From an uncultured delta proteobacterium (lineage in GTDB: Bacteria; Desulfobacterota; Syntrophia; Syntrophales; UBA2185): 64,000 bases of DNA. The notes below the pieces were generated by a model, which searched no databases, was not told where the DNA came from, and saw only the letters and a list, made by a program, of their open reading frames with translations. Of this stretch, positions 625 through 21,337 are shown in pieces; the first letter of the stretch is position 1, and each line of letters begins with the position of its first letter. The translations under genes and the position numbers were made by a program. The stretch is taken from positions 1 to 64,000 of the forward strand of contig CAVOID010000014.1 of NCBI GenBank assembly GCA_963695875.1. The letters run 5' to 3'.

Positions 625-966
625 ATGAAATATATAGTTGCGATAATACAGCCCCACAAGCTGGACGAAGTGATGAAGACGCTGGAGGATGTGGAGGTAA
701 ATTTAATGACCGTATCCAATGTCCTGGGGCGTGGCAGGCAGAAAGGGCTTACGGAAGTATACCGGGGCGCCAAGGAGGTGGGCAGCCTTTTAAAGAAGAT
801 CAAGCTGGAGATTGCCGTTAATGAGGATTTTGTGGAACCGACGATACAGGCGATCATCAAGGGAGCCCGGACTGGCGAGATCGGTGACGGGAAGATTTTC
901 GTTTTGGATTTGTATGAGGTTGTCCGCATCCGTACAGGTGAACGCGGCGGCAAGGCCATAGGATAA
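625..966 (+). CDS. glnK: nitrogen regulatory protein P-II (GlnK type, next to amt)
   Basis: 112-aa [19 protein letters not shown]...GRGRQKG...GDGKIFV, typical P-II. It sits directly downstream of amt. Confidence 0.9.
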
Positions 967-985
967 AGAGAGGGGTGTGAGTATT

Positions 986-2404: not shown

Positions 2405-2409
2405 ATAAA

Positions 2410-2489
2410 AAGAAGGATTCGAGGGATCAAGGGTTCAAGGAAATCTAACACTTGAACCCTGGAACCCTTGAATCCTCGAACCCTTCTTT
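2410..2489 (+). terminator. long imperfect palindrome (GGNTYNARGG decamer repeats) downstream of glnA; candidate terminator or attenuator
   Basis: aagaaggattcgagggatcaagggttcaagg ... cttgaaccctggaacccttgaatcctcgaacccttcttt, ending T-rich. Confidence 0.4.
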
Positions 2490-2556
2490 GCAACTAGACG
2501 GGATAAGAACCAAAAAGAATAACAGAAATAAACCAAGTATTATAAATCAGGAGGTT

Positions 2557-3834
2557 ATGGACATGGATATAGGAATGGTAGGTATTTTTATCGCTGCGTT
2601 GGTCATCATGGCAATCATTATCTACATCAAGGCCAACATGAAGATCTGCGAGCCCAATGAGGTGATGATCTTTTCCGGGCGGCAGTTCAAGGAGAAGGAC
2701 AAGGTAGTGGGGTACCGTGTGATCAAGGGAGGAAGAGGGTTGAAGATTCCCCTGATTGAGACGGTAAGGACCATATCGTTGAATACGATGCCCATCGAGA
2801 TGGATGTAACAGGCGCCCTCACGAGAGGGACGATTCCCGTAAATGTGAAGGCCATGGCGAATGTCAAGATCGCCGGCACGATGGAAGACGGTCTGGGGAA
2901 TGCCATCGAGAGATTCCTCGGGAAGAGCGCTACGGCCATTGCCACGACGGCCCGGGAGATCCTGGAAGGCACATTGCGCGGCATACTGGCGACGATGCAG
3001 CCGGAAGAAGCCAATGCGAACCGGATAGCACTGGCCCAGCAGGTTGCCAAAGAGGCGCGGGAGGACATGCAGAGGCTGGGGCTTGTCCTGGATACGTTCA
3101 AGATCCAGGAGATCAAGGATGACAAGGGTTATCTGGAGGCCATTGCACGGAAGAAAAACGCAGAGGTTCATCGTGATGCCAGGATTGTTGAGGCGGAATC
3201 CAATGCGGAGGCGAGCAAGAAGGAAGCGGAGGGGAAGAAGGTTGCGGAGATTGCGGACATTGAGGCCCGGCAGTCGATCGTGCAGTCGGACATGAACTTC
3301 CGGGTGCAGCAGGCGACGTGGAAGGCTGAGGCGAACCGCGCCGAGGAGAAGGCCAAGATTGCCGGTGAAATCTCCCGTATGGAGGAAACGAAGACCCTTG
3401 AGGGAAAACGGGTCGAGACCAACAAATTGAAGTATCAGGCTGAAGTCGTCATCCCCGCGGAAGCGGAGAAGGATGCCCAGCAGATGAAGGCCATCGGAGA
3501 AGCCGCCTTTACCTTTGAAGAGGGCAAGGCCAAGGCGGATGCCCTGAAGCTGCTCCGCGAACAGTGGGAACATCCGAACAGCAAGGACCTGTTCATGATC
3601 CAGCTCCTGCCGGAACTGGTAGGACATGTGTCCAAGGTCATCGCATCCAATCTCAATGTGGAAAGACTGACCGTGGTCGACGGCGGCAGCGGGAGCGGCA
3701 GTGGCGGAGGTCTCCCGCACCTCGTGGGAAACCTGGCCGGGTCTGTGAACTCCTTCTTTGAGCAGATGAAGACCCTCACAGGCCTGGATCTGGCCAAGCT
3801 GATGGAAGAGCGCTACAAGGTGTCAGCTAAATAA
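2557..3834 (+). CDS. flotillin-like SPFH/band-7 family membrane protein
   Basis: RBS AGGAGG at 2546-2551 (aggagg ttatgg ac ATG) precedes ATG 2557. N-terminal TM helix, SPFH core and a long Ala/Glu/Lys coiled-coil tail (flotillin/YqiK-like). The intact 460-aa ORF in the track starts at an upstream alternative start. Confidence 0.8.
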   Translation: MDMDIGMVGIFIAALVIMAIIIYIKANMKICEPNEVMIFSGRQFKEKDKVVGYRVIKGGRGLKIPLIETVRTISLNTMPIEMDVTGALTRGTIPVNVKAMANVKIAGTMEDGLGNAIERFLGKSATAIATTAREILEGTLRGILATMQPEEANANRIALAQQVAKEAREDMQRLGLVLDTFKIQEIKDDKGYLEAIARKKNAEVHRDARIVEAESNAEASKKEAEGKKVAEIADIEARQSIVQSDMNFRVQQATWKAEANRAEEKAKIAGEISRMEETKTLEGKRVETNKLKYQAEVVIPAEAEKDAQQMKAIGEAAFTFEEGKAKADALKLLREQWEHPNSKDLFMIQLLPELVGHVSKVIASNLNVERLTVVDGGSGSGSGGGLPHLVGNLAGSVNSFFEQMKTLTGLDLAKLMEERYKVSAK

Positions 3835-3867
3835 TAAATAGCGTAACAGCAAACCACTTCACATCAT

Positions 3868-3924
3868 CCCCTTCCTGAGAAACCTTCCCTGCAGAGGGAT
3901 TTAAGGGAAGGGGATTCTTTTCTT
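3868..3924 (+). terminator. rho-independent terminator after the flotillin gene
   Basis: ccccttcc...ggaagggg stem with an inner ccctgcagaggg hairpin, followed by attcttttctt. Confidence 0.55.
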
Positions 3925-4284
3925 ACGTTCCCTTTCCATCAATATATCTTATAGCATAAATAAAAATTCTTAATCAGATTTCCATCTGGAAGCAGCCACA
4001 CGACCCTTCAGTACATCTCTGATCCTTTTGCGGATCAGGATTGATAAGAAATCCTTGATTCTGGCCATTCCCTTTAATGCGCCAAGCTCTTCTTCGTAGA
4101 GGGACAAGATCACCTCGACAGTGTCAAATACTGAATTATTTTATTTCTACTTACCTTTCTGATCAAATATTCGTACTGGATTTCTTTGAGATCATGCTAT
4201 AATCTTTTATGGTGATACTTTGAATGTCAGAGTTTAGTGAGATCGGGTCAGTAGTTTTATCAACATTTCATAAGATTTTTCTCT

Positions 4285-5726
4285 TTGCTCAAAATGAGAT
4301 GGAGAGACGGGGCTTTTCTTGAAATCCGTCTTGAAAAATCCGCCTTTACGAAAGGTGGGGGTGCGAAGCGAAAGATATTATTCGAGGCAGCTTTGAACAT
4401 TCTTATTGTCGATGATGAGCTGAACATTCGTAAGACCCTGTCGGTCTGTCTGGAAACGGAAGGGCACAATGTTGTTGCTGTCAGTAATTTTCAGGATGCC
4501 CTTTCTGAAAACACCCGCCGGTCATTTGACATGGCTTTTGTGGATCTCCGTCTCGGAATAGATAGCGGTCTCGACCTCATTCCTGCGCTTCTCGCAGGAT
4601 CACCATGGCTGAAGATAATCATAATTACAGCCTATGCATCAATTGACACAGCCGTAGAGGCAATAAAGCGTGGCGCTACGGATTATATCCCGAAACCCTT
4701 CACACCTGCCCAGGTAAAACTTGTCGTTCAGAAGGTCGCGGAGGTCCGTTCACTGGAACAGCGTATTGATGCACTCCAGTCAGATTTGAACCGCATCAAT
4801 CCCGAAGTAGACCTGACTACGACAAGCCCGGTAATGCAGCGGGCCATCGAGCTTGCCAAGACAGGTGGCCCCAACCGATGCGATCGTCCTGCTTGACGGG
4901 AGAGAACGGAACCGGGAAAAGTATTTTTGCGCGGGCAATTCATGGGTGGAGCAAACGGGCAGATATGCCTTTTGCCGAGATCTCATGCCCGGCACTTTCA
5001 GCGCGAGCTTTTAGAAAGTGAACTCTTCGGTCATATCAAAGGCGCCTTTACCGGTGCTGTGCGAGACCATTCCGGCCGGATTGCATTTTGTGAAGGAGGA
5101 ACGCTGTTTCTCGATGAGATCGGTGATCTCCCCCTCCCGGTTCAACCGAAGCTTCTACAGGTTTATCCAGGAAAGGGAATACGAACGTCTGGGTGACCAT
5201 GTCACACGCAAGGCAGATGTACGCCTGATCGCAGCCACAAATATGGATATTGAGGATGCCGTCAAGAATCACCGGTTTCGGGAAGATCTTTACTATCGGC
5301 TTAATGTGATTCAGATAGAAATCCCGCCGCTCCGGGAACGGCCCGATGATATTGTCAGTCTGGCCACGACGTTTACTTACTTTCTTCGGGAGGAGCCATC
5401 ACTGTGACTCCCAGCATTTTACCGAAGATGCTCTTCACGTTCTGCGCCGTTATTCCTGGCCGGGTAATGTCCGTGAATTAAGAAATGTCGTTGAAAGAGC
5501 CTCCATAATCTGCAAGTCAGAGTCAGTCGGGATCGAACATCTCCCGGAAAAGCTTCTGACTGCCGAAGAATACCCAAAACCAGGTGATCTTATTTCCCTT
5601 GATAAAATCGAAGAGATGCACATCCGCCGCGTCCTGGCATCGACTAAATCATTACAGGAAGCCGCTGAAATCCTCGGAGTTGATCAGGCTACACTCTGGC
5701 GGCGGCGGAAACGATATAATATCTGA
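4285..5726 (+). CDS. sigma-54-dependent response regulator (REC + AAA+ sigma54-activation + Fis-type HTH), frameshifted in assembly
   Basis: ORFs 4285-4896, 4927-5196, 5018-5407 and 5346-5726 together give ILIVDDE...receiver, GENGTGKS Walker [43 protein letters not shown]-terminal HTH. True start may be TTG 4393. Confidence 0.8.
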
Positions 5727-6045
5727 GCAAACTCATCTTCTCCTTTCATGCCAATTTTGTTCAATCATTTGTCATTCCAAAGTCTGAGCAAGTGAATCTC
5801 AATAGTTCACGAGTTTTTTACCCTGAGAAACCGAAGGGCCCAACATGACAATCCAGTATCATTTTTTTGATTGCAATACTGCATCGAACACTTTCGGAAG
5901 TAGATTGCAATTTGCAAGACTTCTTAGTCCTGGTTCTTGCTAAGTGCAAGGAAAACCGGATCCCCCATAATTTTAAGCTATTGAATTTTCTTACTTTTAT
6001 CTATGGCATAGCAGTTGCTCTCTTTTATAGAGAAGGAGGACGACC

Positions 6046-7904
6046 ATGTTTGGTTTACGACAGAAGCTACTTACTGGTATTTGGGGGCCTTTTACTGATC
6101 ATTGTACTGATCAGCATTCAGAGCATCATCAAGGTTACAGACCTGGGAAATGCGATTGATATCATTCTTCGGGAAAACTACCAGAGTGTCATTGCCTGTC
6201 AGAACATGAAAGAATCCCTGGAAAGGATAGACAGCGGCGCTCTCTTCATCCTTTCCGGTTATGAAAAGGAGGGAAGAGAGGCCATTGACGGGAATGTACC
6301 GGAGTTTGAGAAGGCACTGCAGATCGAATTGAACAATATCACGCTTCCCGGAGAAGGAGAAAAGGCGAACCCATCTTCAGGAACTTTTTGCACGATATAG
6401 ACCCATGGTTCAAAGTATGGAGGATAAGACGCAGTGTCATCCGAGAGACGGCGTCAGATTTATTTTACCGAACTTTTTCCATTGTTTCGAGAAATCAAAG
6501 GAAACGGCAGATCAGATCCTAACACATGAATCAGCAGAACATGTACGATGAAAACCAGTCGGCACGCCACAAGGCGGCCACAGCACGTGAACAAATGTAT
6601 TTTCTTTTGTTTCTCGGAGCCATTGTGGCCATCGCTTACATGTTCCTAATCGGCAAGTGGATTCTTCGCCCGATCAGAAGCCTGACACAATCCGTCGATG
6701 AGATCAAACAGGGCAATCTTGATCTTGTGGTGAGAAGTGACACCCGCGATGAGATAGGACACCTTTCAGAGGCATTTAATGAAATGACGGCAAGCCTCAG
6801 AGAAATCCGCCGCATTGAAGAGCTGAAGCTGGTCCGGATGCAGCACTCCACACAGGAGACATTCAATAATCTTCCCGATGTCGCGGCAGTAGTAGACCTG
6901 GAAGGCAGGGTGGAGGTGTCAACGGAAACAGCCAGAAATACCTTTGGCCTCAACCGAGGCGTCCAAATCAGGATTCTTGCCTTACAAATGGATGGCTGAT
7001 CTTTTTAGAGAAGCCCTCAAGAGCGATCAAGATGTCGATGAACCAGGATAACATCCCGCTCATACAACACTTCATCAATGCAGAAGAACACTACTTCCGT
7101 CCGACCGCCGCACCCATCCTGAACAGTCGAAAAGAAGTGACGGGTGTCATCCTTGTTCTGAAGGACGTGACGGAGCAGCTGGAGCATGACGAACTTAAAC
7201 GGGGTGTCATTTCGACCGTCTCCCATCAATTGAAGACGCCGCTTACGTCCATCCGCATGGCCCTCCACCTGCTTCTCGAGGAAAAGGTCGGCTCCCTGAC
7301 ACCTAAGCAGGCGGATCTTCTGATTGCCGCCCGTGAAGACAGCGACCGCCTGGACCGGATCCTTGAGAATCTTCTGGACATGAGCCGCATCGCATCCGGA
7401 AAGGTGGCCATGGAATTGCAGGCGGCTCAACCGCATCAGATGATCCTCAAATGCAGTCGAATCGTACCGGGCAGCAGCCCGCCAGCGCGGAGTGGAGCTG
7501 AAGACGGACCTGCCGGACGATCTGCCCGATGTACTGGCAGATACGATGCAGATCGCTCATGTATTTGCCAATCTGCTCTTCAATGCCCTGAAGTACACCG
7601 ATTCGGGCGGTACGATCACTCGTGTCCGCGCAGGCTGATGAAGAACAGGTTCGTTTCTCCGTTTCGGATACGGGGAAGAGGCATACCCGAAGAGTACCTT
7701 CCGAAGATCTTCGATCGATTCTTTCGCGTCCCCGGACAGGAGCACGAAACAGGCATAGGATTGGGGCTTTCCATCGTCAAGGAAATCGTCGAGGCCCACG
7801 GGGGATCGGTAAGTGTGGAAAGCCGTGTAGGTGAGGGAAGCACATTCTCTTTCACGCTTCCAAGGGCCGACAAAGTTGCAAAGGATGCGATCAGCCATGA
7901 TTGA
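6046..7904 (+). CDS. sensor histidine kinase (periplasmic sensor, HAMP, PAS, HisKA, HATPase_c), frameshifted in assembly
   Basis: Pieces 5867-6400 (TM + sensor), 6526-6999 (HAMP: [17 protein letters not shown]), 7032-7904 (H-box [12 protein letters not shown]; G-boxes [25 protein letters not shown]). Confidence 0.75.
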
Positions 7905-7983
7905 TCTAATCTATATTTCAACTGCCATCATCTTTTTTGCAATTTGTGTTTTCTATGCCGGGCTCTGCGGGAGGCTTTAGAAT

Positions 7984-8067
7984 ATGGCTGATATCATTGT
8001 TCTTATGATCGGATTGTTTCTGATCGTCTATCTCTTTTTTGTGGTACTTCGTCCTGAAAAATTTTAA
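7984..8067 (+). CDS. kdpF: K+-transporting ATPase subunit F (27-aa hydrophobic peptide)
   Basis: ATG gct gat... encodes MADIIVLMIGLFLIVYLFFVVLRPEKF*, a typical KdpF C-terminus (LRPEKF), immediately upstream of kdpA. Confidence 0.7.
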   Translation: MADIIVLMIGLFLIVYLFFVVLRPEKF

Positions 8068-8113
8068 GTTTGCTCACAATATCTCAAGTTGCTTAAGGAT
8101 AGGAGAAGTTAAC

Positions 8114-9921
8114 ATGAACATTTATGGCTGGATTCAATTAACTGTCTTCATCGGCATCCTCCTTTTGCTGACGAAGCCGATAGGAGTTTATCTCACACAG
8201 GTTCTCGATCCTGAGGGAAAGACCTTTCTCGACCCGGTGCTTCGCCCTGTGGAAAGGCTGTTTTATCGGCTTTTCGGACTTGACCCGAAAAAGGAGCAGG
8301 CCTGGCAGGAGTATGCCCTGTCCCTTCTTGCCTTCAGTCTGGTGAGTCTTTTATTGACTTACGTTATCCTTCGCGTTCAGCATCTCCTGCCTCTGAACCC
8401 CCAGGGATTCGGACCGGTAAGCGAACACTTGGCCTTCAATACAGCGGTCAGTTTCACAACCAATACCAACTGGCAGAGCTATGGTGGAGAGTCTACTCTT
8501 TCGTATTTTTCGCAGATGGTCGGCCTTGTTTTCCACAACTTTACCTCCGCAGCCGTCGGAATTGCCGTGGCTGCCGCTCTGGTAAGGGGTATTGCCCAGC
8601 AGTACACTACCCGTACGATCGGCAATTTCTGGGTCGATCTTGTCCGTGTAAATCTTTATCTGCTGCTGCCGATCTCCCTTGTCTATGCCCTCTTTCTTGT
8701 ATCCCAGGGAATGATCCAGAATTTCAAGCCATACGATACGGCACAGCTTGTGGAACCCGCCGTCATTCAGGTCGCCAAGAAGGATACAGCAGGTCAGGAG
8801 ATCATGGATGCTCAGGGAAAGCCGGTCATGGAGGATCAAAAAGTTGAAACACAGACGATTGCGCAGGGACCGACGGCATCTCAGGTGGCGATCAAGATGC
8901 TGGGAACAAACGGCGGTGGATTCTTCAATGCCAACGCCTCTCATCCCTTTGAGAATCCGACACCGCTTTCCAATTTTTTGCAAATCCTGTCTATCTTTCT
9001 CATACCGAGCGGACTGACCTATTACCTGGGCCGGATGGTGAAGAACCAGCGGCACGGCTGGACAGTCTGGGGGGCGATGCTTGTTCTCTTTCTCGCAGGA
9101 GTCCTGACATGCTGGTGGGCGGAAGCAGCGGGAAACCCGAGGATGCATGCCTTGGGTGTGGATGCCAGTCGGAGGGCAACATGGAAGGGAAGGAAGTCCG
9201 CTTCGGGATATTCGGTTCCGCCCTCTTTGCCACCGTGACGACGGATGCCTCCTGCGGCGCCGTCAATGCGATGCACGATTCCTTTACGCCTCTGGGAGGC
9301 CTGATCCCGCTCTTCAATATGCAACTGGGCGAGGTCATCTTCGGCGGTGTAGGGGCCGGCCTTTACGGGATGCTCGTTTTCGTTTTACTGACGGTATTTT
9401 TAGCAGGACTGATGGTCGGGCGCACGCCTGAGTATCTGGGTAAAAAGATCGAGGCCTATGATGTGAAGGTCAGCGTATTGTTTGTGATGGTGCCTGTTTT
9501 TACCGTCCTGGGATTCACCGCCTGGGCGGCGGTGAGCGCCTGGGGTTTGGCCGGACTGAATAATACGGGCCCTCACGGTTTTAGCGAAATACTCTATGCC
9601 TTCTCATCGGCTGTCGGCAATAACGGCAGCGCCTTCGCCGGACTCACTACCAATACTTACTGGTACGACACAACAATGGGCATCGCCATGCTGCTGGGCC
9701 GCTTTTTCATGATCGTCCCGGTGCTGGCCCTCGCGGGCAGCCTGGCACAGAAGAGGCAGATCGCGACAAGCGGCGGCAGTTTCCCCGTTTCCGGCGTTAT
9801 GTTCGCTATTCTCCTCCTCGGCACCGTTCTCATCGTTGGCGCCCTGACGTTTCTCCCGGTACTGGCGCTGGGTCCCATTGTCGAGCATCTTTTGATGACC
9901 GGATCACAGATTATCTATTAA
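8114..9921 (+). CDS. kdpA: K+-transporting ATPase subunit A; one frameshift near 9170 (ccc to cc)
   Basis: RBS GGAG then ATG 8114, [15 protein letters not shown].... Homology continues from ORF 8039-9238 into ORF 9109-9921 at ...[12 protein letters not shown]. Confidence 0.9.
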
Positions 9922-9933
9922 GGAGCAAAGGCG

Positions 9934-11955
9934 ATGGCTGCCAGAACGCATTCCATATTCGATCGTGAAATTATATTGCAGGCAATCATTGAGGCTGCGA
10001 AGAAAATGAACCCGGTACACATGGTCAAAAATCCGGTCATGTTTGTCACCGAGGTGGGGGCGTTCATTGTAACCGCCGGACTCTTTTTCCGACCGGAAGG
10101 TGAAAATCTTGGCTTTAGTTTGCAGATCGCTCTGTGGCTCTGGTTTACCGCGTACTTCGCCAATTTCGCGGAGGCTATGGCCGAAGGCAGAGGAAGGGCG
10201 CAGGCGAACGCCCTCCGTAAGACACGGACCCGGACAATGGCCAACCGTATCCAAAGCGATGGCACGTCGGAAAAGATCCCTGCCGAGCAACTTCGAAAGG
10301 GGGATATATTTCTTGTTTCCGTCGGTGAGATCATACCTGCAGACGGTGAAATCATCGAGGGGGTCGCCACGGTTGATGAATCGGCTATTACCGGAGAATC
10401 GGCCCCTGTAATCCGCGAGGCAGGCGGAGACCGGAGCGCTGTCACAGGGGGAACAAAGGTCCTGTCGGACTTGATCAGGTGCCGCGTGACGGCAAACCCA
10501 GGCGAGAGTTTCTTGGACCGCATGATCAGCCTCGTAGAAGGTGCCCGGCGTCAGAAGACTCCGAATGAGATCGCTCTCACGATCCTTCTTGCGGCTTTGA
10601 CTATTATTTTCCTCGTCGTCATCATGACGCTGAAATTCTATGGACTCTATTCGGAAATATCATTTTCTGTAACCGTCCTGGTGGCGCTCCTGGTCTGCCT
10701 GATCCCAACCACCATCGGCGGTCTCTTGAGTGCCATCGGCATCGCTGGAATTGACAGAATGGTGCAGAGAAATGTCCTGGCCATGAGCGGCCGGGCTGTT
10801 GAGGCAGCCGGTGACGTCGATGTTTTGCTCCTCGATAAGACAGGAACCATTACGCTAGGAGACCGCCAGGCCACCGATTTTTTTCCTGCACCGGGCATTA
10901 CTATGGAAGGACTTGCTGACGCGGCGCAACTTGCCTCACTTGCCGATGAGACGCCCGAGGGAAGGAGCATTGTCATTCTTGCAAAAAAATATGGTCTGAG
11001 AGGCCGTTCAATTTCCGATATGCCTCAGGCCAAATTCATCAACTTCACGGCACAGACGCGCATGAGCGGCGTCGATTTAGACGGCCGGCAGATAAGAAAG
11101 GGGGCTACCGACGTCATCAAGTCTTTTGTCGGTGTGTCCTTTCCGATAGAGGTTCAAAACACCATCGACAGTATTTCCAGTTCCGGTGGAACACCTCTTG
11201 TCGTTGCTTCCGGGACCAAGGTTCTGGGTGTTGTCCACCTGAAAGACATCGTGAAAGGAGGACTTAGGGACCGGTTTGAACGATTCCGGGCGATGGGGAT
11301 CAAGACCGTAATGATAACCGGTGACAACCGTCTTACAGCCGCCGCTATTGCCCAGGAAGCTGGTGTGGACGATTTCATCGCCGAAGCGCGACCAGAAGAT
11401 AAACTGGCATTGATTCGAAAGGAACAGGCGAAAGGACATCTGGTTGCCATGACAGGCGACGGCACAAATGACGCACCTGCTCTGGCACAGGCCGATGTCG
11501 GCGTGGCCATGAATACGGGTACGCAGGCAGCCAAGGAGGCGGGTAATATGGTGGACCTTGATTCCAACCCGACGAAGCTGATTGAAGTCGTTGAGATCGG
11601 CAAACAGATGCTCATCACGCGCGGAGCATTGACGACGTTCAGCATCGCCAATGACGTGGCTAAATACTTCGCCATCATCCCGGCCATGCTTGTCGGCTCG
11701 TTCCCGGTTATTGAGCCCCTCAACATTATGAGACTACAATCACCGGACAGCGCAATCCTGAGTGCCGTCATTTTCAACGCCCTCATCATCATTGCCCTGA
11801 TTCCCCTGGCCCTCCGGGGTGTGAGATTCCGGCCGGTCGGGGCCGCGTCCCTTCTTAAGCGCAACATTCTGATTTACGGCCTGGGTGGCCTCATGGCGCC
11901 CTTTCCGGGGATAAAGATAATAGACATCATTGTGAACGCCTTACATCTCACGTGA
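9934..11955 (+). CDS. kdpB: K+-transporting P-type ATPase subunit B (intact)
   Basis: 673-aa intact ORF with DKTGTIT phosphorylation motif, [12 protein letters not shown] and the KdpB N-terminus [10 protein letters not shown]. Confidence 0.95.
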
Positions 11956-11972
11956 AAGGAGCATTTGCGACC

Positions 11973-12557
11973 ATGAAAAATCTGCTGACAGAACTTCGCA
12001 TCTCCCTTGTCGCTACCCTATCCCTGGCGGTTCTTTTATGCGGTCATTTACCCGGCTCTGGTCTGGGTAACAGCACAGGGTATTTTCCATAACGAGGCCA
12101 ACGGGTCGCTTATCATAAGAAGTGGCAAAATTGTGGGATCGAGCCTTCTTGCGCAGGGATTTACCGGTGCAAAATACTTTCACCCGCGACCATCAGCGGC
12201 AGGTTCCGGATACGATGCCGCCAATTCCGGTGGCAGCAACCTCGGCCCACTCTCCAAGAAACTGATGGACGATGTTGGACAGCGCGTCCGTGATTATCGT
12301 GCTGAGAACGACCTTTCCACCGACGCCAGAGTACCGGTTGATGCTGTAACCGCTTCAGGAAGCGGACTTAGACCCGCACATCAGTCTGGAAAATGCACTG
12401 TTACAGGCATCCCGTGTTGCTCGTGTGCGAGGATTGAGCTGGGGAAGCCATACGCAACATGATCACGGCTCGCACGGAGGGGCGCGTTCTGGGAATCTTC
12501 GGTGAACCCCGGGTCAACGTGCTACTCTTGAATCTGGATCTGGATGGGAGCAAATGA
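11973..12557 (+). CDS. kdpC: K+-transporting ATPase subunit C, two frameshifts
   Basis: MKNLLTELRISLVATLSLAVLL..., then frame change to ...NEANGSLIIRSGKIVGSSLLAQGF...YDAANSGGSNLGP...VPVDAVTASGSGL, then ...ITARTEGRVLGIFGEPRVNVLLLNLDLDGSK*. Confidence 0.85.
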
Positions 12558-12560
12558 ATC

Positions 12561-14237
12561 ATGCCTGCCGAAAATCGTGCAGATTCTTTTTTAAGGATGA
12601 TTCGCCGAGCCCAGCGTGGTCATCTGAAAGTATACCTGGGGTATGCCGCGGGCGTGGGTAAGACCTACCGCATGCTCCAGGAGGCTCATCAGCTCAAGGA
12701 TGAAGGGATCGACGTGGTCGTGGGACTTGTGGAAACCCATGGCCGTGCAGATGTCGCCAGGCTCCTGGAAGGGCTGGAAATAATCCCCAGGCGCAGCCAG
12801 GAATACCGCGGCATCATCGTGGAAGAGATGGATGTCGATGCAATACTGGCCAGGAAACCCCAAATCGTGCTCGTCGATGAACTGGCTCATACCAATGTGC
12901 CGGGCAGTCGAAATGCAAAGAGATATCAGGATGTCCAGGACATCCTTGCCCAGGGGATTCACGTTATCACTACCTTAAATATCCAGCATTTGGAAAGCCT
13001 TTATAATATCGTCGAAACGGCATACCGGGGTGAGGGTTCATGAGCGTCTCCCTGACTCCGTTCTTGCCGAAGCAGATCAGATTGTCAACGTCGATTTGAC
13101 CACGGAGGATCTGGAAGAACGTCTGAAAGAAGGGAAAATATATCCCCTGGAACGCGTTGAAACTGCCCTATCAAACTTCTTCAAAAAATCAAACCTGGAG
13201 CAGCTCCGTGAGCTTACCCTGCGCGAACTGGCCTCTCAGATCGATCTGCGATACCGGGATGATCTGGAAGAAGAGGTTGCGGCAACACCCGATCAGGTGA
13301 TGGTATGTCTCAGCTCAAAAGGCCCTAACAGTGAAAAACTCCTCCGATACGCGTCACGACTGGCGGGCAGGCTCAACAGAAACTGGTATGCAGTCTATGT
13401 TCAGACGCCGGTCGGAGGCGCCTACGGCCATTGATGCGCGGACACAGCGTATCCTCTCCGGCACTTTGACGCTCGCGAAGCAACTAGGGGCTATTGTGTT
13501 CACCTTCAAGGGAGAGGACATTGTAAAAACGATATTGCAATTTGCCAGGGAGTACCGGGTAGGACACATCGTGATCGGCAGCCCGAGAAAAATTCCTTTC
13601 TGGAAACTCCTGCTTGGCGAACGCAGTGTCGCCGAACGTCTGATCCACGATGCCAGGGGTGTTACATGTCACTGTCCTGGATACACTGGAGCCGGGGGCA
13701 GCCATACCCCTCCCGGTGGAAGCGAAGATCATCCAGGAGGAGACTGTCCCTTCAGCGCCTCCCCCGGAAACCGTCGGCACAGACTTAAGTCACTTCATAT
13801 CCCGTAAGAGCATTGTCATCTGGGATACGCCAATAGCAAAAGACAATTTGCTCCAGAGCCTCACAGAGGCAATACGGTGTGAAAACGGAATCGAACAAAG
13901 ATTAAAGGGACTTGATGCAGTCAGAGAAAGAGAAGAACAAGGGTCAACCTTCTTTAACGAAGGAGTTGCCTTTCCCCATGCGAGAATTGAGGGTTTAAAA
14001 CGCTCGTGTGTTGCTATCGGACTGACCCATCGCGGCGTGCCCGACGTTGAGACAGAGAAACCCATTGAATGCGTATTTTTAATCTTCTCACCCGCTGATA
14101 TTCCAGATGAACAGCTTCAGATACTGGCACTGGTCAGCAAGGCCGCCCAGGACAGGCACCTGATGGACAATCTGCGATCTGCGAAAACTCCTGCTGAGGT
14201 ATACACGGCCATTCAGAACTGGGAGGCTGCCCTATAA
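12561..14237 (+). CDS. soluble KdpD N-terminal sensor domain + Usp domain + PTS EIIA(Ntr-type) domain fusion; no TM or kinase domains; frameshifted in assembly
   Basis: 12561-13043: KdpD-N (GAAGVGKTYRMLQEAH...VITTLNIQHLES). 13030-13434 and 13331-13807: Usp-like (VMVCLSSKGPNSEKLLRYA...IVIGSPRK). 13650-14237: PTS_EIIA_2-like (GVAFPHARIEGLKRSCVAIGL). Segments abut in alternating frames; the 13640 junction is consistent with a 1-nt indel. Confidence 0.75.
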
Positions 14238-14267: not shown

Positions 14268-15158
14268 TTACGGCCATCTTCCGGCTGATTTTTCTTCTGG
14301 AACAGGCGGATTCTTTGATTGTCCGTCGCCTGAGCTGCCGTCATCAGGCTTCTTATGCAATTGATCAGTTGTCTCTTTGTCGTCTGATTGTGATTGCTCC
14401 TCAGGCTGTTTCAGATCCTCCCTTTCAATGCTTTCAGGCTCACTCATGACCTCCTCATACTCAGGAATCACGATGCCTCTTCTGACCATGATTTCATAGA
14501 TCTTATCAGAGCGGTTTTCAACAAACTTTGAATCGCCTGAAGGATTAAACCTTCTGGGATTGGGGAGAACAGATGCCAGCCGCGCCGCTTCTTTTGCCGT
14601 CAGTTCCGATGCGGGCTTGCCAAAGTAGCTGTGAGCGGCAACTCCGATACCGAACAGACCATCACCCCATTCAGCAACATTCAGATAAAGCTCGATAATC
14701 CTTTTTTTGGAAAGATTTCTCTCAATCCGCCAGGTAAGGATAGCTTCCTTTATCTTCCGAACAGGATTCTTTGAAGGAGTCAGATACAGGTTCTTTGCGA
14801 GTTGCTGACTGATTGTACTTCCGCCAAGCGCAAATTTCTTCTTTTTAATGTCCTTTTCAATGGCCTTTTGTATGGCATCATAATCAAACCCCTCGTGGGT
14901 CCAGAATTTATCATCTTCCGCAATAATTACCGCCTTGATGACGTAAGGAGAAACTTGAGACAAAGGTACCCATTGCTGGGCGATTTTTTTCTTTTTACCC
15001 TGACTCTGCCACTCTTCTTCCCGATACTCCATGAAAGCCGTTTTTTTGGGGTGCATTTTTCTCAGCTTTGAAACATCCGGGTAAACAAAATACACACCAA
15101 TACTTAGAAAGAGAGCTGCCAAAATGATAATAATAAGAATTCTAATCAATTTCTTCAT
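14268..15158 (-). CDS. mtgA: monofunctional biosynthetic peptidoglycan transglycosylase
   Basis: N-terminal TM anchor, then GT51 motifs (IIAEDDKFWTHEGFDYDAI, GGSTISQQLAKN, RKIKEAILTWRIE). Start probably MKKLIRIL at 15158. Confidence 0.8.
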   Translation of the reverse strand: MKKLIRILIIIILAALFLSIGVYFVYPDVSKLRKMHPKKTAFMEYREEEWQSQGKKKKIAQQWVPLSQVSPYVIKAVIIAEDDKFWTHEGFDYDAIQKAIEKDIKKKKFALGGSTISQQLAKNLYLTPSKNPVRKIKEAILTWRIERNLSKKRIIELYLNVAEWGDGLFGIGVAAHSYFGKPASELTAKEAARLASVLPNPRRFNPSGDSKFVENRSDKIYEIMVRRGIVIPEYEEVMSEPESIEREDLKQPEEQSQSDDKETTDQLHKKPDDGSSGDGQSKNPPVPEEKSAGRWP

Positions 15159-15823
15159 AATCCCGAAATTTCCATTAACCATTGTCTTCCAGATAAACTA
15201 TTTGCAGAAATTTTTTCCGGTTGACAATGCGATTTCACGCCACCCTCCATATACCATTTCGTCATATTATGAAAGTCAGGAAATACCATTTCACATGACT
15301 TCTCTGATATAAAATACATTGACCTTAAAATATTCGGATATATTGTCATAATTAACACACATTTGTGTCGCCACTTCACAAAGAACTTACATTTATGTTC
15401 GCCAGTTACGCGATTCTTATTCCCATAAATGTGCAACTCTCACTCAGAAAAGGTAAAAACACATCTATGGGCAGTTTATTATGAAATGTTATCAAGATTC
15501 CCCAGTCTGGCATAAGTTTTGAAGTACTTAATATCTTAAAGATTATTTTTATTCACAGACAGGGCATTAGAAGGGTAAATAGATCCATTTTTGTAAATAG
15601 ACTGTTAGTGATCTTCGTCACAGCTTTTTACTCTATTTTTAAATATATTACATCTAAAGCCCTTTAAAAATTTGCGTTCATGCGAAAATTTGTTTTGACT
15701 TAAGAATGTTTTTTTTGTAGAAGATTTTGTTAGCTTTTCTGTGTGCAGTATGTAATCCATGTCAAAATCTGTGCACCGTTAACAAAATGTGGGATCCCCC
15801 GAATGGAAAAGAGGAGGTACTTC

Positions 15824-16795
15824 ATGATGAAACGGCAGATTTTCCTATGGATGGGACTGATTGTCCTGTTCACTGCATTTGGCCTCAACCAGGAGGTACT
15901 TGCAAAGGAATATACGGTCAGGCAGGGCGATTCACTCGCCAAGATTTCAAAAAAGTTCGGTGTTACTACTCAGGCATTGATGGAAGCCAATGATCTGACA
16001 AGCAATGCCCTCAAACCAAAACAAATCCTCGTCATTCCAGATAACGGCAAGAAACAAATTACAAAATCCAAGAAGGCACATTCTTATAACGCCGAATACT
16101 ATGTGGTGAAAAAAGGAGATACCCTTCAAACTATTGCAAAGAACACCGGCCATTCAGTAAATGAAATCAGAAGGTTAAATCGTGTAAATGCAAGGTCCTT
16201 GAAAATAGGACAGAAACTTGTGCTGGCAAGGCTTGGTCCTGTGAGAGAACTGGCTGTGGCACGCACTGATGAAATAGATGAAGCGGAAGATGACGATGAT
16301 CTGCTTGGCGATGATGAAGACATTGTCATGAATGATAGCTTGCCTGAAGCAGAAAAGGACGTTGAAACAAACGCTGAATTGTTGGGTAAATGGGACAGTC
16401 CCCATGAGCGGTCACTATTTGTCCGGGTTGCCAAGGGATTTTTAGGAGCTCCTTATCGATTGGGGGGTTCATCTGTCAGGGGTTTGGATTGTTCCGCATT
16501 TGTGAAGAAGATTTACGAATTTTTTGATGTCAGCCTTCCCAGAACAGCAAGAGAACAGGCACATGTAGGGCAACGCATATCGAGGGATGAATTGAAGGAA
16601 GGGGACCTCGTCTTTTTCAATACTAGGCGGGCGTATGGCCATGTGGGGATATATATAGGAAACAATGAATTCGTCCATGCGGCAGCCGGCCGGCAGAGAA
16701 TGGTCAGGATTGATACTCTAGACAAACCTTACTACAATAAACGCTTTATCAAGGCCGTCAGGATTAAAGGATTGGACAGTGGATTATCTTCCTGA
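15824..16795 (+). CDS. secreted LysM(x2)-NlpC/P60 peptidoglycan endopeptidase
   Basis: RBS GAGGAGG then ATG 15824. Signal peptide, two LysM repeats (YTVRQGDSLAKISKKFGV; YVVKKGDTLQTIAKNTGH), Asp/Glu-rich linker, NlpC/P60 core (GLDCSAFV...GDLVFF...GHVGIYIG). Confidence 0.85.
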   Translation: MMKRQIFLWMGLIVLFTAFGLNQEVLAKEYTVRQGDSLAKISKKFGVTTQALMEANDLTSNALKPKQILVIPDNGKKQITKSKKAHSYNAEYYVVKKGDTLQTIAKNTGHSVNEIRRLNRVNARSLKIGQKLVLARLGPVRELAVARTDEIDEAEDDDDLLGDDEDIVMNDSLPEAEKDVETNAELLGKWDSPHERSLFVRVAKGFLGAPYRLGGSSVRGLDCSAFVKKIYEFFDVSLPRTAREQAHVGQRISRDELKEGDLVFFNTRRAYGHVGIYIGNNEFVHAAAGRQRMVRIDTLDKPYYNKRFIKAVRIKGLDSGLSS

Positions 16796-16825
16796 ATAGT
16801 CTAAATTCAAAACTAATTTCTTTGA

Positions 16826-16859
16826 AAGATGGGATACGCAAGTATCCCATCTTTATTTG
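16826..16859 (+). terminator. rho-independent terminator
   Basis: aagatgggatac-gcaa-gtatcccatctt followed by tatttgt. Confidence 0.65.
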
Positions 16860-17060
16860 TACAAAATCAGACAGAATATTTACAAAATCATTTTTTTATT
16901 GATTTATTTGTGTACCCTTTATATCCTGCATCCATACCCTGCATGCTAACGATACATTGCAGTCAGTAACCACCGAATAAAAGACGGTTAAATTGCATAA
17001 GAAAGGCGTGCTGGTATCAGAATGTATAAACATCTATATTAAAAAATGGAGGAGGCAAAC

Positions 17061-17834
17061 ATGCATAAGAGTTTATCATCGTTCATTTGGGTTCTAATGT
17101 TTTCCTTTTTTATCAGCGGCTGCGTTACCACGGCTACTTACGAGAAAAAAGCAGCAGAAGCGGACAATCAGGCAAAAGAGCTAGCATCTATCCAGCAAAA
17201 ATTCAATAATATGAAGGCAGACAGGGATCAACTGAAAGAAGCTTTTGCAAATGCGACCAGTGACCAGTCAAAGACCATCACCGATATGAGGCAGAAAAAT
17301 GCCAACCTTGAAGCTGAAAATACAAGACTGAAGGAAAATCTTGCCGAGATGAAAAAGAAAGAGGCGGAAGTACAGTCGGAAAGTAATACTTATAAACAAC
17401 TGATGCAGGAAATGAAGGATGAGATCTCCAAAGGACAGGTCACAATTTCAGAACTGAAAGGAAAACTGACCCTGGATGTCGTGGACAAAATCCTTTTTGC
17501 CTCCGGGCAGGCAGAAGTGACAAAGGAAGGTCTTGCTGTTTTAAATAGAGTTATAGATATCCTCAAAAATGTGAAGGATAAGGCAATCCGTATTGAGGGG
17601 CACACCGATAATGTAAGAATCAAGGGCAAGCTGGCTAAGCAGTATCCCACCAATTGGGAGCTCTCGGCTGCCCGTGCCATTAACGTGACAAAATATTTAC
17701 AGCAGCAGGGGATCGATTCTACACTATTATCAGCGACGGCTTTTGGCGAATATAAGCCGGTTGCAAACAACGACTCTTCGGAAGGAAGGGCCAAGAACCG
17801 GAGAATAGCCATTATTCTGCTGCCAAAGGAGTGA
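17061..17834 (+). CDS. OmpA/MotB-family lipoprotein with N-terminal coiled coil
   Basis: RBS GGAGG then ATG 17061. Lipobox FISGC, coiled coil, OmpA C-domain (IRIEGHTDN..., NWELSAARAINV, NRRIAIILLP). Confidence 0.8.
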   Translation: MHKSLSSFIWVLMFSFFISGCVTTATYEKKAAEADNQAKELASIQQKFNNMKADRDQLKEAFANATSDQSKTITDMRQKNANLEAENTRLKENLAEMKKKEAEVQSESNTYKQLMQEMKDEISKGQVTISELKGKLTLDVVDKILFASGQAEVTKEGLAVLNRVIDILKNVKDKAIRIEGHTDNVRIKGKLAKQYPTNWELSAARAINVTKYLQQQGIDSTLLSATAFGEYKPVANNDSSEGRAKNRRIAIILLPKE

Positions 17835-17852
17835 CAGTTTAAAAGTTCCATC

Positions 17853-19787
17853 ATGGCTAAGACCATCACTGAAAAAATTATAGAAGAACATATTGTTTCT
17901 GGCAGATATGCACCCGATACTGAGATCGGCATTAAAATCGATCAGACCCTGACGCAGGATGCAACAGGGACTATGGCTTATCTGCAGTTAGAGTCGATGA
18001 ACGTTCCACGCGTCAGAACAGAATTATCGGTAAGTTATATCGACCACAATACTATCCAGATCGGCTTTGAAAATTCTGATGACCACAGGTACCTGAAGAC
18101 TATCGCGCAGAAATTTGGTATATACCTGTCGCGGGCAGGCAATGGCATCTGTCACCAGGTACACTTTGAGAGGTTTGGGAAACCTGGAAAAACGCTCCTT
18201 GGCTCCGACAGTCATACTCCTACAGGGGGAGCCCTGGGCATGCTCGCCATCGGGGCCGGCGGCCTCGATGTGGCTTTGGCTATGGCGGGAGAACCCCTCT
18301 ACCTTGCCTGTCCCAGGATAATCAAGATCAATCTCACCGGTAAGCTTCCTCCGTGGACCTCGGCTAAAGATATCATCCTCAAGGTTCTTGAGATTTTTAC
18401 CACGAATGGAAATGTCGGCTGTGTTTTTGAATATGGAGGAGAGGGAATGGCAGCTTTGTCAGCACCGGAGAGGGCAACAATTGCCAACATGGGGGCGGAA
18501 TGCGGTGTAACCACTTCCGTCTTCCCCAGCGATGAAATGACGAGGCTTTTCTTAATGGCCGAAGGAAGGGAAGCGGATTGGCGGGAGATAACAGCTGATC
18601 CGGATGCCGAATATGAAAGGATCGTTGATATAAACCTCTCCGAACTCGTTCCCCTTACCGCAAAACCGCACAGTCCCGATAATATCAGCACCGTAAGAGG
18701 TGTGGGAGAAATTGAAGTGAATCAGGTCTGTATTGGCAGCTGTACGAACTCATCCTACAAAGACCTGGTAACAGTCGCCAAGATTCTGAAAGGCAAAGTG
18801 GTTCACCCAGAGACTAGTTTTATTATCACCCCCGGTTCGAGACAGGTTCTGGAAAATCTTGCCAGAGACGGTTATCTTGCAGACCTTATCCAGTCGGGCG
18901 CCAGACTCATGGAAAATGCATGCGGTTTCTGCATCGGGAGCAGCCAGAGTCCCCAGACAAAGGGCGTGTCTCTCCGGACGTCCAATAGAAATTACCTTGG
19001 CCGCTCAGGTACACTTGATGCGGAAGTTTACATAGTGAGCCCCGAAACGGCAGCAGCAGCTGTCATTACAGGCAGGTTCACCGATCCCCGCGACATTGGT
19101 ATGGAATATCCTGAAGTGAAAATGCCCAAACAGTACTACATCGACGACAGTATGATAATGAAACCTGAAGATACAAGGGATCCATCCTTAATAGAAATTT
19201 ACAGGGGCCCCAATATAGGCGCTCCTCCCAGGAATGACCCCTTCCCAGAGATGATTCAGGGCGAAATTACAATAAAGGTCGGGGACAAGATCACGACAGA
19301 TCATATCATCCCTGCCGGTACCCGGATGAAATATCGTTCAAACATACCCAAATATTCGGAGTACTTTTTTGAACTGTTGGATGGACGTTTTTACAAACGC
19401 GCCAAAAAAATCCAGGATAAGGGAAGGCATAACATCATCGTTGCCGGAATTTCCTACGGGCAGGGTTCGTCGAGGGAACATGCCGCCATGTGCCCGATGT
19501 TTCTTGGCGTGAAGTCTGTTATTGCTAAGTCTTTTGAGAGAATCCATTCGGCGAATCTGATAAACTTCGGAATCCTTCCCGTTACCTTCAAGGATGAGAA
19601 AGATTATGACCGTATTAACCAGGGTGATAGTCTTAAGATACCGTATGCCAGAAATGTCATCAAAGAAAACGGCAAAATGATTGTTATAAATGTCACGAGT
19701 GGCATTTCATTCGAGGTCATTTACAGCCTGTCAGAAAGGCAAAAGAATATTTTGCTGGCTGGCGGTGCGCTCAATCTCCGAAGATAA
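17853..19787 (+). CDS. aconitase-family hydratase (fused large + swivel domains; putative aconitate hydratase)
   Basis: Intact 644-aa ORF. Aconitase motifs: HQVHFERF, GSDSHT, CIGSCTNSS, GFCIGSS, IISYGQGSSREHAA. Confidence 0.8.
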   Translation: MAKTITEKIIEEHIVSGRYAPDTEIGIKIDQTLTQDATGTMAYLQLESMNVPRVRTELSVSYIDHNTIQIGFENSDDHRYLKTIAQKFGIYLSRAGNGICHQVHFERFGKPGKTLLGSDSHTPTGGALGMLAIGAGGLDVALAMAGEPLYLACPRIIKINLTGKLPPWTSAKDIILKVLEIFTTNGNVGCVFEYGGEGMAALSAPERATIANMGAECGVTTSVFPSDEMTRLFLMAEGREADWREITADPDAEYERIVDINLSELVPLTAKPHSPDNISTVRGVGEIEVNQVCIGSCTNSSYKDLVTVAKILKGKVVHPETSFIITPGSRQVLENLARDGYLADLIQSGARLMENACGFCIGSSQSPQTKGVSLRTSNRNYLGRSGTLDAEVYIVSPETAAAAVITGRFTDPRDIGMEYPEVKMPKQYYIDDSMIMKPEDTRDPSLIEIYRGPNIGAPPRNDPFPEMIQGEITIKVGDKITTDHIIPAGTRMKYRSNIPKYSEYFFELLDGRFYKRAKKIQDKGRHNIIVAGISYGQGSSREHAAMCPMFLGVKSVIAKSFERIHSANLINFGILPVTFKDEKDYDRINQGDSLKIPYARNVIKENGKMIVINVTSGISFEVIYSLSERQKNILLAGGALNLRR

Positions 19788-19848
19788 TCCGCTATACTTT
19801 GCTTATAATCCTGCGCACGGTCATAACAGGATTGCTTTTTGAAACTGA

Positions 19849-21337
19849 AATGATACCCGTTGAAGAAATTTTTTATCATTGCCTTTCCGGTCCCTTCAAG
19901 GGTGAACTGACAGCACATAATGTTTCGCTCTATCATACCTCCCCTTTCAATATCTATTGCGAGAAATTTATTCCTGTAGATGAGAAAGACCCTATGGGTC
20001 CTTATCGCCAACTCCTTTTGGAAAGAGGGCTTGAGCATGAACACAGGGTAATAGAAGGCAGATATCCCGAATGCCGGACAATCCATTACGAAACACCTGA
20101 AGAAGGTTTTCGTAAAATCCTCGATCAAATGGTAAGAGGAGCAGAGGTCATCCGCGGCCTTCCCCTGTTATATTTCCCGGAAAATATGCAGGGAAGAATA
20201 GACGTCCTTGAGAAGAGATATGATCATCCTTCCGTCTTCGGCAACTACCACTACACCGTAACGGAAATTAAACAGGCAAAAAAAATAAAAAAAGACCACA
20301 TCCTTCAGGGGGCTTTTTATACATATTTACTGGCAAATATCCAGGAGTGCCTTCCAGAGAAATTCCGGGTTATCAACCATGACCTGGAGACACTGGAATA
20401 TTACTTCTCAGATTATGAGGCAGAACTGCAAAGTGCCATCAGAGGAACGCAGGCAATTCTGGACGGCATAGAACGACCTACGGCAACCTACAATGCCTCA
20501 GAATGGCCATGGGAAAGATACAGCAATCACGAGGCACTGAGGATGAGAGATGTTTCGCTGGTCGGACAAGTCGGTCCCCGGACAAAAGAGAAACTGGTCG
20601 CACGGGGTTACAAAAAAATTTGGGATATTTCATATGCAAAGGTTGATACTTTGCTGACTATTCAGGGAATAAACGAGACTACAGCCAGAAAACTCATTTT
20701 GAATGCACAGGCTATAATGAAAAACGAACCCATCCTTCTCGATCGGTCGGCCCTGAGATTACCGGCAAAATCTACCGAAATCTTCCTGGATCTGGAAGGA
20801 ACAGATCAACCGGACCTGGAAGGAGAGGTTGATCCGGTTGACTATCTCATCGGGGTTGTTGTTTGCAAAGACGGCAGGGACGAATATCAGTCATTCATAG
20901 CCCACAGGATACGTGATGAAGAAAAGATGTTCCGGGATTTCATGTCCTTTCTGAAAACACAGAATGATTATGTTATTTACCATTGGCACAATTATGAACA
21001 CTGGCATATCAAGCGTCTGGCGGAACGATATAACTTAACCGAAGAGGTGGAGATATCGGTCTTACCCCACATGATTGACCTCCACAGGATCGCCACAAAG
21101 ACATTCGCCTTTCCCACTTACACAAATGGCCTTAAAGATGTGGCTGCCTTTTTAGGCTTCAAGTGGCGGCATGATGACATCAACGCCCTTGACGCCATCG
21201 CCTACTATCTCAGATATCAGACTAATCCGGAGACCTACCGGGGCAAAATCGAGGCCGTCATCGATTACAATGAAGACGACTGCCGGGCCACGAAACGGAT
21301 CAAGGACTGGCTGCAGGAGCAGCAAAATAATTTATAA
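19849..21337 (+). CDS. RecB-like nuclease, TM0106-type (PD-(D/E)XK N-domain + RNase-H-like C-domain)
   Basis: ORF 19799-21337 (TTG); a more plausible ATG is at 19849 (MIPVEEIFYH). C-terminal IFLDLEGTD...DYLIGVVV...YHWHNYE resembles the YprB/RNase_H_2 fold. Family assignment is from memory of motif patterns. Confidence 0.55.

Follow-up and report, generated by a model that had tools for sequence, protein, structure and literature searches.

What might be the role of a KdpD-like protein that has no histidine kinase domain and ends in an EIIA domain of the phosphotransferase system (PTS)? The question is raised by a gene at 12561-14237 (+ strand) of a 64,000-nt stretch of DNA (positions 1-64,000 of contig CAVOID010000014.1, assembly GCA_963695875.1; hereafter the window) from an uncultured delta proteobacterium of the Syntrophales. 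This gene, called here the fusion gene, begins 3 nt after the stop codon of kdpC, in agreement with an original prediction, made from the DNA letters, which had placed it right behind kdpFABC. Two regulators of Kdp have hitherto been studied apart, namely EIIA-Ntr (PtsN), acting on the histidine kinase part of KdpD, and the N-terminal domain of KdpD, a serine kinase acting on KdpB. In the fusion protein an EIIA-Ntr-like domain and the serine kinase module share one polypeptide from which the histidine kinase is omitted, and this in at least 232 species-level genomes of several phyla. From conserved residues and gene order we propose, as a reading to which we give an even chance, that the gene encodes an EIIA-gated KdpB serine kinase and is the last cistron of a putative sigma-54-dependent operon formed by a histidine kinase (HK) gene and kdpFABC.

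One reading unit with three domains

In the window as given, the fusion gene is covered by four overlapping open reading frames (ORFs; 12561-13043, 13030-13434, 13331-13807 and 13650-14237), lying in frames 0, 1, 2 and 0, and the protein sequence runs on from each of these pieces into the next. The reference used to read it was L001, a syntenic contig of a related metagenome-assembled genome (MAG; PDVH01000028.1 of GCA_002634255.1), about 89% identical in nucleotide sequence, in which the fusion gene is one intact 557-aa ORF. Alignment to L001 revealed single extra bases at 13022, 13413 and 13665, and removal of one base at about each of these sites yielded a 557-aa protein that was 94% identical to its best relative, the intact P0001 (557 aa). 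The window thus holds, as had been predicted, one reading unit split by 1-nt indels; the junction that had been placed at 13640 does correspond to a single extra base, but it lies nearer 13664.

A Pfam search of the corrected protein returned the domains in the predicted order. The KdpD N-terminal domain (PF02702; residues 18-227, 12612-13242, + strand; E = 1.8e-95), matched over the full length of the profile (positions 1-210 of 210), is followed by a Usp domain (PF00582; residues 246-364, 13297-13654, + strand; 29.8 bits, cutoff 24), a Pro-rich and weakly conserved linker (residues ~373-410, 13680-13793, + strand) and an EIIA-Ntr-like PTS_EIIA_2 domain (PF00359; residues 425-552, 13836-14219, + strand; E = 5e-19, 69-72 bits, cutoff 27), which is C-terminal in the polypeptide ending at residue 557. 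The linker was recognized by its composition (7 Pro in the 40 residues 373-412), by alignment and by its disorder in AlphaFold2 (AF2) models (pLDDT < 50); it is about 35 aa long and ranges from 30 to 43 aa over 78 homologues. HisKA, HATPase, GAF and DUF4118 domains were absent from the corrected protein in the Pfam search, and no transmembrane (TM) segment was found in its hydropathy profile, the maximum Kyte-Doolittle mean over 19 residues being 1.39, while the neighbouring HK displayed two clear TM segments. The protein therefore has, as anticipated, neither TM segments nor HisKA or HATPase domains.

The KdpD-derived module and its putative target

The KdpD-N/Usp region had been described in the original prediction as a sensing module. 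This is incomplete, since the N-domain of KdpD is an atypical serine kinase that phosphorylates Ser162 of KdpB and thereby inhibits the pump (PMC11018627, Silberberg 2024), and the catalytic residues are invariant here. The isolated N-domain is active as a kinase, and mutagenesis of E. coli KdpD has shown that KdpB-Ser162 phosphorylation depends on the Walker A motif, on W39/R190 and on D109/E110 (PMC11018627). In the fusion protein we found the Walker A sequence GVGKT (K34, codon 12660-12662), Y36, the Walker B residues D106/E107, and R187. Across 78 distinct fused proteins G31, G33, K34, T35, D106, E107 and R187 were 100% conserved, and position 36 was occupied by Y, F or W. A profile search of the PDB with this domain returned 2R8R (E = 2.6e-80), which was also the top match in Foldseek. 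The product of the adjacent kdpB keeps the TGES motif at residues 153-156, in which Ser156 is the counterpart of Ser162 in the E. coli protein. The full conservation of the catalytic residues in the 78 proteins, together with the retention of TGES in KdpB, supports an EIIA-gated kinase; so does the place of the gene, because short KdpD/Usp proteins have been kept after kdpC where a separate two-component system runs transcription (PMC11018627), the same arrangement as that of the fusion gene.

In the Usp domain we found a motif of the E. coli type, RxxxR-X8-WxAVY (R262, R266, W275-Y279), and the best structural match of this domain in Foldseek was the USP domain of KdpD, 7JI4. The c-di-AMP-binding motif SxS-X20-FTAxY, as defined in PMC4686210, was not found in this domain. 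In Deinococcus, c-di-AMP stimulates the kinase of a short KdpD, whose Usp domain is the suspected binding site (PMC11018627). With a Usp motif of the E. coli type, an input other than c-di-AMP would be expected in the fusion protein, which leaves the EIIA domain as the obvious candidate.

The EIIA domain and its histidine

The predicted phosphorylatable histidine region of the EIIA domain is present: His472 (codon 13977-13979) stands at the position of PtsN His73, and R456 at that of PtsN R57. Among the 78 fused proteins H472, E457, S461 and T462 were invariant and R456 was found in 76. The R-E...GST...PH motif was unchanged even where identity in the EIIA domain was down to 28-40%, among fused members that had been collected by a HMMER search without motif bias. 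When the PDB was searched with a profile of the domain, the PtsN structures 1A6J, 2A0J, 4GQX and 3URR were matched at E = 4e-14 to 2e-13 and EIIA-Mtl at 3e-5, and Foldseek gave target-normalised TM-scores of 0.77-0.83 to the PtsN structures, so that these four were the best PDB matches by both sequence and fold, ahead of EIIA-Mtl. To this extent the label 'Ntr-like' given in the original prediction is justified, but the domain falls below the cutoffs of the PtsN equivalog models (51.7 vs 138.7 bits for TIGR01419, 44.0 vs 221 bits for NF008145).

Outside the KdpD context, this EIIA domain had its nearest relatives in Na_H_Exchanger (CPA) transporters whose C-terminus is formed by one EIIA_2 domain or by a tandem of them (P0172, P0209, P0214, P0222, P0234 and P0265), and Foldseek also returned cytoplasmic domains of EIIA-like fold from SLC4/Band 3 anion exchangers. 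Cytoplasmic regulatory modules built on the EIIA fold recur among ion-transport proteins. These matches would fit an EIIA domain that works independently of phosphorylation, as an autoinhibitory or ligand-binding module like those on ion transporters, with no PTS relay and with a histidine retained for binding or structure. The second histidine of PtsN, His120, points the same way: its position is taken by Gln517 in the window and, among the 78 fused proteins, by Q (69 proteins) or M (9 proteins), a histidine being found there only in more distant fused members. The hosts, moreover, include Aminicenantes, Hydrogenedentes and Krumholzibacteria, phyla in which a PTS cannot be taken for granted. 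We nevertheless hold a phosphorylation-independent EIIA domain to be decidedly unlikely, as the R-E...GST...PH motif matches that of E. coli PtsN and is invariant among fused proteins 28-52% identical in this domain, the pattern expected of a working phospho-acceptor.

Distribution and locus types of the fusion

To place the fusion among bacteria, one genome per GTDB species was scanned with two peptide patterns from the EIIA domain. Relatives were found in 232 species-level genomes, mainly of Syntrophales, Smithella, Desulfomonilia and Aminicenantes, and the best 80 of the 232 were inspected; these came from Syntrophales/Syntrophaceae, Smithella, Desulfomonilia, Syntrophorhabdaceae, Aminicenantes, Hydrogenedentes, Krumholzibacteria and Terriglobales MAGs. 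No GTDB representative exceeded 83% identity to the EIIA domain of the window. Across the best 80 loci the EIIA and KdpD-N/Usp regions lay in a single ORF, the exceptions being L048, which is frameshifted, and a few loci at contig ends, and at every locus with enough flanking sequence the fusion gene adjoined kdpABC. Homologues with this domain set in one intact ORF, 547-581 aa long, were abundant, and the fusion is not a chance juxtaposition. The best 120 database matches were nearly all 505-578 aa long, and all except P0068 carried both PF02702 and PF00359. The phylogenetic distribution of the architecture, which the original prediction had suggested examining, is therefore that of a conserved component of kdp clusters. 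The names under which the relatives are filed, 'PTS sugar transporter subunit IIA' (NCBI) and 'sensor histidine kinase KdpD' (JGI), are misleading.

The loci differ in what accompanies the fusion gene. At most of those with enough flank it clusters with the gene of a HAMP-HisKA-HATPase kinase, and an order in which a response regulator (RR) and an HK gene precede the fusion gene and kdpABC also exists. In Smithella-type loci the order is amt, glnK, a c-di-AMP riboswitch (RF00379, 91.6 bits), two small ORFs, the fusion gene and kdpFABC (L003 7685-11698), and neither an HK nor an RR gene was found within about 8-10 kb. The same order is kept in L031, L032, L033, L063 and L071, a second and independent case in which the fusion is associated with genes for ammonium transport and P-II. 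The riboswitch is confined to Smithella-type loci; it was not found in L001, L002 and L004, which are of the same locus type as the window, the window itself not having been scanned. In five loci (L037, L038, L047, L054 and L064) a Usp-DUF4118-GAF gene is inserted between kdpC and the fusion gene. Its product (L037 3437-4738; 433 aa) covers positions 242-651 of the KdpD model, without N-domain or kinase domain, and from this domain content it looks like a detached potassium-sensing module. A further type (L058 6949-20441; also L053, L039 and L036) comprises HK, fusion gene, an ORF of 181 aa of unknown kind, kdpABC, a BBP2 porin gene and a canonical KdpD (N-domain, Usp, DUF4118, GAF and following domains), so that two KdpD N-domains occur in one kdp neighbourhood.

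In the window the RR-HK-kdp-fusion cassette (4393-14237) has a GC content of 0.52, against 0.46 in the downstream flank (14238-39000), and the cassette is likewise GC-richer in L001, L002 and L010. Its presence in varied genomic contexts and in several phyla suggests that it moves as a unit. The edge of the fusion-bearing contig L004 (1-378, - strand) corresponds to the 5' end of a bacterial 16S rRNA gene (RF00177, 329 bits).

Adaptor or gated kinase

The original prediction had further viewed the fusion as the joining of two partners known to interact non-covalently, and had proposed a K+ signalling adaptor. The first statement is not quite accurate: the part of KdpD bound by PtsN in E. coli is the HisKA/transmitter domain, PtsN1 of S. 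fredii binds the GAF domain (PMC9239096), and both of these targets are absent from the fusion polypeptide. An adaptor or co-sensor would have to find them in other proteins, its EIIA domain docking on the HisKA (DHp) domain of the operon HK or on a separate Usp-TM-GAF protein, with the result that transcriptional signalling would be modulated or the serine kinase module recruited to a membrane potassium sensor. Such partners are at hand, as most loci with enough flank contain the HAMP-HisKA-HATPase kinase and five loci the Usp-DUF4118-GAF gene; furthermore, the transmitter of the operon HK is PhoR/PnpS-like, and besides KdpD the known target of PtsN is PhoR (bioRxiv 10.1101/2023.07.05.547876). 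This function, although compatible with that of a kinase, seems to us fairly unlikely. A pure adaptor would not need invariant ATP-binding and catalytic residues of a serine kinase, and Smithella-type loci hold the fusion gene and kdpFABC with no HK or RR gene nearby. The Smithella-type loci point to an HK-independent role of the fusion protein, and in combination with the invariant catalytic residues they indicate that docking would not be its only role; a pure adaptor is accordingly less well supported than an EIIA-regulated KdpB kinase.

As an EIIA-gated kinase, the fusion protein would be a soluble, kinase-only 'short KdpD'. Its KdpD-N domain, by means of the Walker A and B motifs, would phosphorylate Ser156 in the TGES motif of KdpB and so switch KdpFABC off post-translationally. 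The EIIA-Ntr-like domain, tethered by the flexible linker of about 35 aa, would gate the serine kinase in cis according to the phosphorylation state of His472, an input that would replace the potassium sensing by the TM/GAF region of full-length KdpD, or c-di-AMP. The phosphoryl group may come from an HPr/NPr-type relay reporting phosphoenolpyruvate (PEP) and nitrogen status, in which case pump activity would track the metabolic state of the cell. Transcription would be set separately, by a sigma-54 two-component system or, in Smithella, by the c-di-AMP riboswitch. In the window the predicted operon would run in the order HK, small ORF, kdpF, kdpA, kdpB, kdpC and fusion gene, and be driven by the adjacent NtrC-family regulator.

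Several results weigh against this proposal. To the lost equivalent of PtsN His120 must be added that no HPr/NPr was detected, with E. coli and B. subtilis queries, among the ORFs of the window and of 86 loci, amounting to about 1.6 Mb of flanking DNA and not to whole genomes, and that EI was likewise unseen in this flanking DNA; the PTS is known to be missing in some former delta-proteobacteria (PMC2405797). AF2 models of the full protein, built on alignments of 19 and of 84 sequences, had a mean pLDDT of 61-64 and a pTM of 0.33-0.38, and were confident for the EIIA domain and, within the KdpD-N and Usp domains, for parts only; contacts between domains cannot be inferred from models with such pTM values. 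The fusion protein scores below the cutoff of the NCBIfam model NF038185, KdpD_non_kinase, which stands for non-kinase K+ sensors of the cyanobacterial type (368.7 vs 550 bits), and by this comparison it is a relative, not a member, of that curated family. Finally, in the L058-type genomes the fusion is not the sole possible KdpB kinase.

On a bolder reading, which we offer tentatively and consider somewhat doubtful, the fusion might be taken as a 'Rosetta stone', telling us that the serine kinase module of KdpD is a direct target of EIIA-Ntr signalling. PTS-Ntr status (PEP/pyruvate, glutamine/2-oxoglutarate) would then gate KdpFABC post-translationally through the KdpB serine, beyond any effect on kdp transcription, and a new class of input would stand beside potassium and c-di-AMP in the control of P-type ATPases. 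The same reading would predict that in E. coli and rhizobia PtsN has a hitherto unseen effect on the serine kinase activity of the full-length KdpD.

Comparison with known systems

The closest counterparts of the fusion protein are the short KdpD/Usp proteins, such as those of Deinococcus geothermalis (DgKdpD, Q1J2K3) and Anabaena and those of NF038185. They likewise consist of soluble KdpD-N and Usp domains without TM, GAF, HisKA or HATPase regions, are encoded at the end of kdp operons under separate two-component control and conserve the catalytic residues; the fusion differs from them by its additional C-terminal EIIA_2 domain and by a Usp motif that is of the E. coli and not of the c-di-AMP-binding type. 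A close Desulfobacterota relative listed within this class, Desulfurivibrio A0A3A6NN71, stops directly behind the linker. With full-length KdpD of the E. coli type (NF007793) the alignment extends from residue 7 to residue 371 of the fusion protein (model positions 10-371, 368 bits), and both proteins have the N-domain and the E. coli-type Usp motif in common, whereas DUF4118/TM, GAF, HisKA and HATPase are lacking in the fusion. The regulators differ too, KdpD being paired with the OmpR-type KdpE and the fusion operon with a sigma-54 regulator of the NtrC type.

With EIIA-Ntr/PtsN of E. coli, Burkholderia and Neisseria (1A6J, 3URR, 4GQX, 2A0J) the fusion shares the fold, R57/E58, the GST sequence and His73, and, if our proposal is correct, a functional tie to Kdp regulation. 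PtsN, however, is a free protein of about 160 aa, typically encoded in the gene cluster of rpoN, whereas the EIIA of the fusion is the C-terminal domain of a 557-aa protein from a kdp operon; the replacement of His120 by Gln and the absence of the PtsN targets HisKA and GAF from the polypeptide set it further apart.

Effectors regulated in cis by an EIIA_2 domain are known from PRD-type regulators such as MtlR/LicR. The Na_H_Exchanger-EIIA_2 proteins resemble the fusion in having a C-terminal EIIA_2 domain on an effector for monovalent cations, and with both groups it would share the principle that a phosphorylatable EIIA-like domain controls its neighbouring domain; the effector would here be neither a transporter nor a transcription factor but a protein serine kinase whose substrate is a P-type ATPase.

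We found no description of the KdpD-N/Usp/EIIA architecture in the literature. The largest survey of KdpD architectures (PMC11018627) lists in its text classes of KdpD domains only, with no class bearing an EIIA domain, and files close Desulfobacterota relatives as 'KdpD domain, Usp domain'; 'PTS', 'EIIA' and EIIA motif strings were absent from its supplementary files, one of which was only partly covered. The fusion thus appears to be unstudied, a short serine kinase of the KdpD type whose input domain is new, in a kdp operon rewired to sigma-54. It makes testable the hypothesis that a short KdpD devoid of TM/GAF regions and of a c-di-AMP-type Usp domain receives a metabolic (PTS) input post-translationally.

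Origin of the frameshifts

Are the frameshifts that had to be corrected in the fusion gene a property of the genome? Taken as given, the sequence contains these three and about 20 more in the RR, HK, kdpA and kdpC genes, as if the fusion gene and much of the kdp cluster were a decaying pseudogene whose three frameshifts are real in the source genome. Compared with L001, the region 4393-14237 showed 23 uncompensated insertion events (22 of single bases and one of 2 nt; RR 5, HK 10, kdpA 2, kdpC 3 and fusion gene 3) and 0 uncompensated deletions, with no event in kdpB, in the middle of the cluster, or in the genes at 14361-20721. Pseudogene decay in bacteria is deletion-biased, and a spectrum made of insertions only, being the opposite, favours an artefact. 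After frame correction the genes had no in-frame stop codons and dN/dS values of 0.06-0.14, like their intact neighbours. Fragmentation was also seen away from the kdp genes, as glnA (1113-2404) is split across three overlapping ORFs of the same strand and, in 39332-48121, the genes for acyl-CoA dehydrogenase, ETF beta/alpha, a FixC/ETF-QO-like protein and a second acyl-CoA dehydrogenase/ETF set appear split; some loci of MFD-named MAGs (L048, L051, L052 and L083) are fragmented in a comparable pattern. We conclude that the frameshifts of the window are, with high probability, assembly artefacts, that the organism itself probably has an intact copy of the gene and that a decaying pseudogene is very improbable.

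The split pairs in the second region, overlapping or on the same strand, include 41366-41812/41725-42426, 42572-43225/43294-44142 and 44281-44919/44886-45491. This region (39332-48121) is GC-richer (0.54-0.57), as is 1-14237, and the frameshift-like errors seem to cluster in such GC-richer parts of the window. A homopolymer or sequence motif as the cause of the insertions was considered and set aside, since by eye most contexts were non-homopolymeric and no common motif was apparent.

Anatomy and transcriptional control of the kdp operon

The genes of the operon were mapped onto the window from their intact counterparts in L001, and all of them are on the + strand. The cluster opens with the gene of an NtrC-family, sigma-54-dependent RR (REC, Sigma54_activat and HTH_8 domains; 4393-5726), which is an intact 442-aa gene in L001 and contains 5 single-base insertions in the window; its NCBIfam matches were generic AtoC/NtrC-like models, all of them under the equivalog cutoffs. 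A region of 320 nt separates it from the HK gene. Two palindromes of the form TTGC-N3-5-GCAA (5905-5917 and 5937-5949, + strand) lie in this region and are candidate upstream activating sites; palindromes of similar type occur at the same place in L001, L002 and L004. They are followed by a -24/-12 sigma-54 promoter-like element, TGGCATAGCAGTTGCT (6004-6019, + strand), from which about 27 nt lead to the start codon of the HK gene. Of 55 related loci, 46 had an element of this kind in the 200 nt preceding the HK start codon, nearly always at -40 to -51, the background expectation being 0.009 per 200 nt, and it is on account of this frequency that the kdp operon looks sigma-54-dependent in the lineages with the fusion. 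Judged from domain content, kdp also looks to be driven there by a non-orthologous RR/HK pair instead of KdpDE; these lineages thus document an apparent sigma-54/NtrC-type replacement of KdpDE in kdp transcription.

The membrane sensor HK (6046-7904) has two TM segments, a 4HB_MCP-like periplasmic domain, HAMP, HisKA and HATPase_c domains, is not KdpD-like and carries about 10 uncompensated insertions. That it might be the split-off transmitter of KdpD was ruled out by its 4HB/HAMP architecture and its PhoR/PnpS-like transmitter. A very hydrophobic ORF of 27 aa (7897-7980) overlaps the HK stop codon immediately before kdpF and could encode a second small membrane peptide of the operon. The next ORF, also of 27 aa (7984-8067; MADIIVLMIGLFLIVYLFFVVLRPEKF), is kdpF-like by position, size and its C-terminal PEKF motif, which we take to be a mark of KdpF. 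Then come kdpA (8114-9921), with a net +2 frameshift at 9164/9171, kdpB (9934-11955), intact, encoding 673 aa with DKTGT at residue 301, and kdpC (11973-12557), with three single-base insertions at 12045, 12368 and 12438. Beyond the fusion gene, a terminator-like hairpin with a T-run (14271-14287, + strand) lies in the 123-nt gap before a convergent transglycosylase gene (14361-15182, - strand).

The window itself opens with nitrogen-assimilation genes, amt (partial, 2-610), glnK/P-II (574-966) and glnA, which precede the sigma-54 regulator gene of the kdp cluster by about 2 kb, a proximity that is not conserved in L001. Further downstream, 29042-32311 (- strand) encodes a large hybrid sensor kinase (1089 aa), unrelated to the fusion, in which dCache_1 and several PAS domains are combined with HisKA, HATPase_c and a receiver domain.

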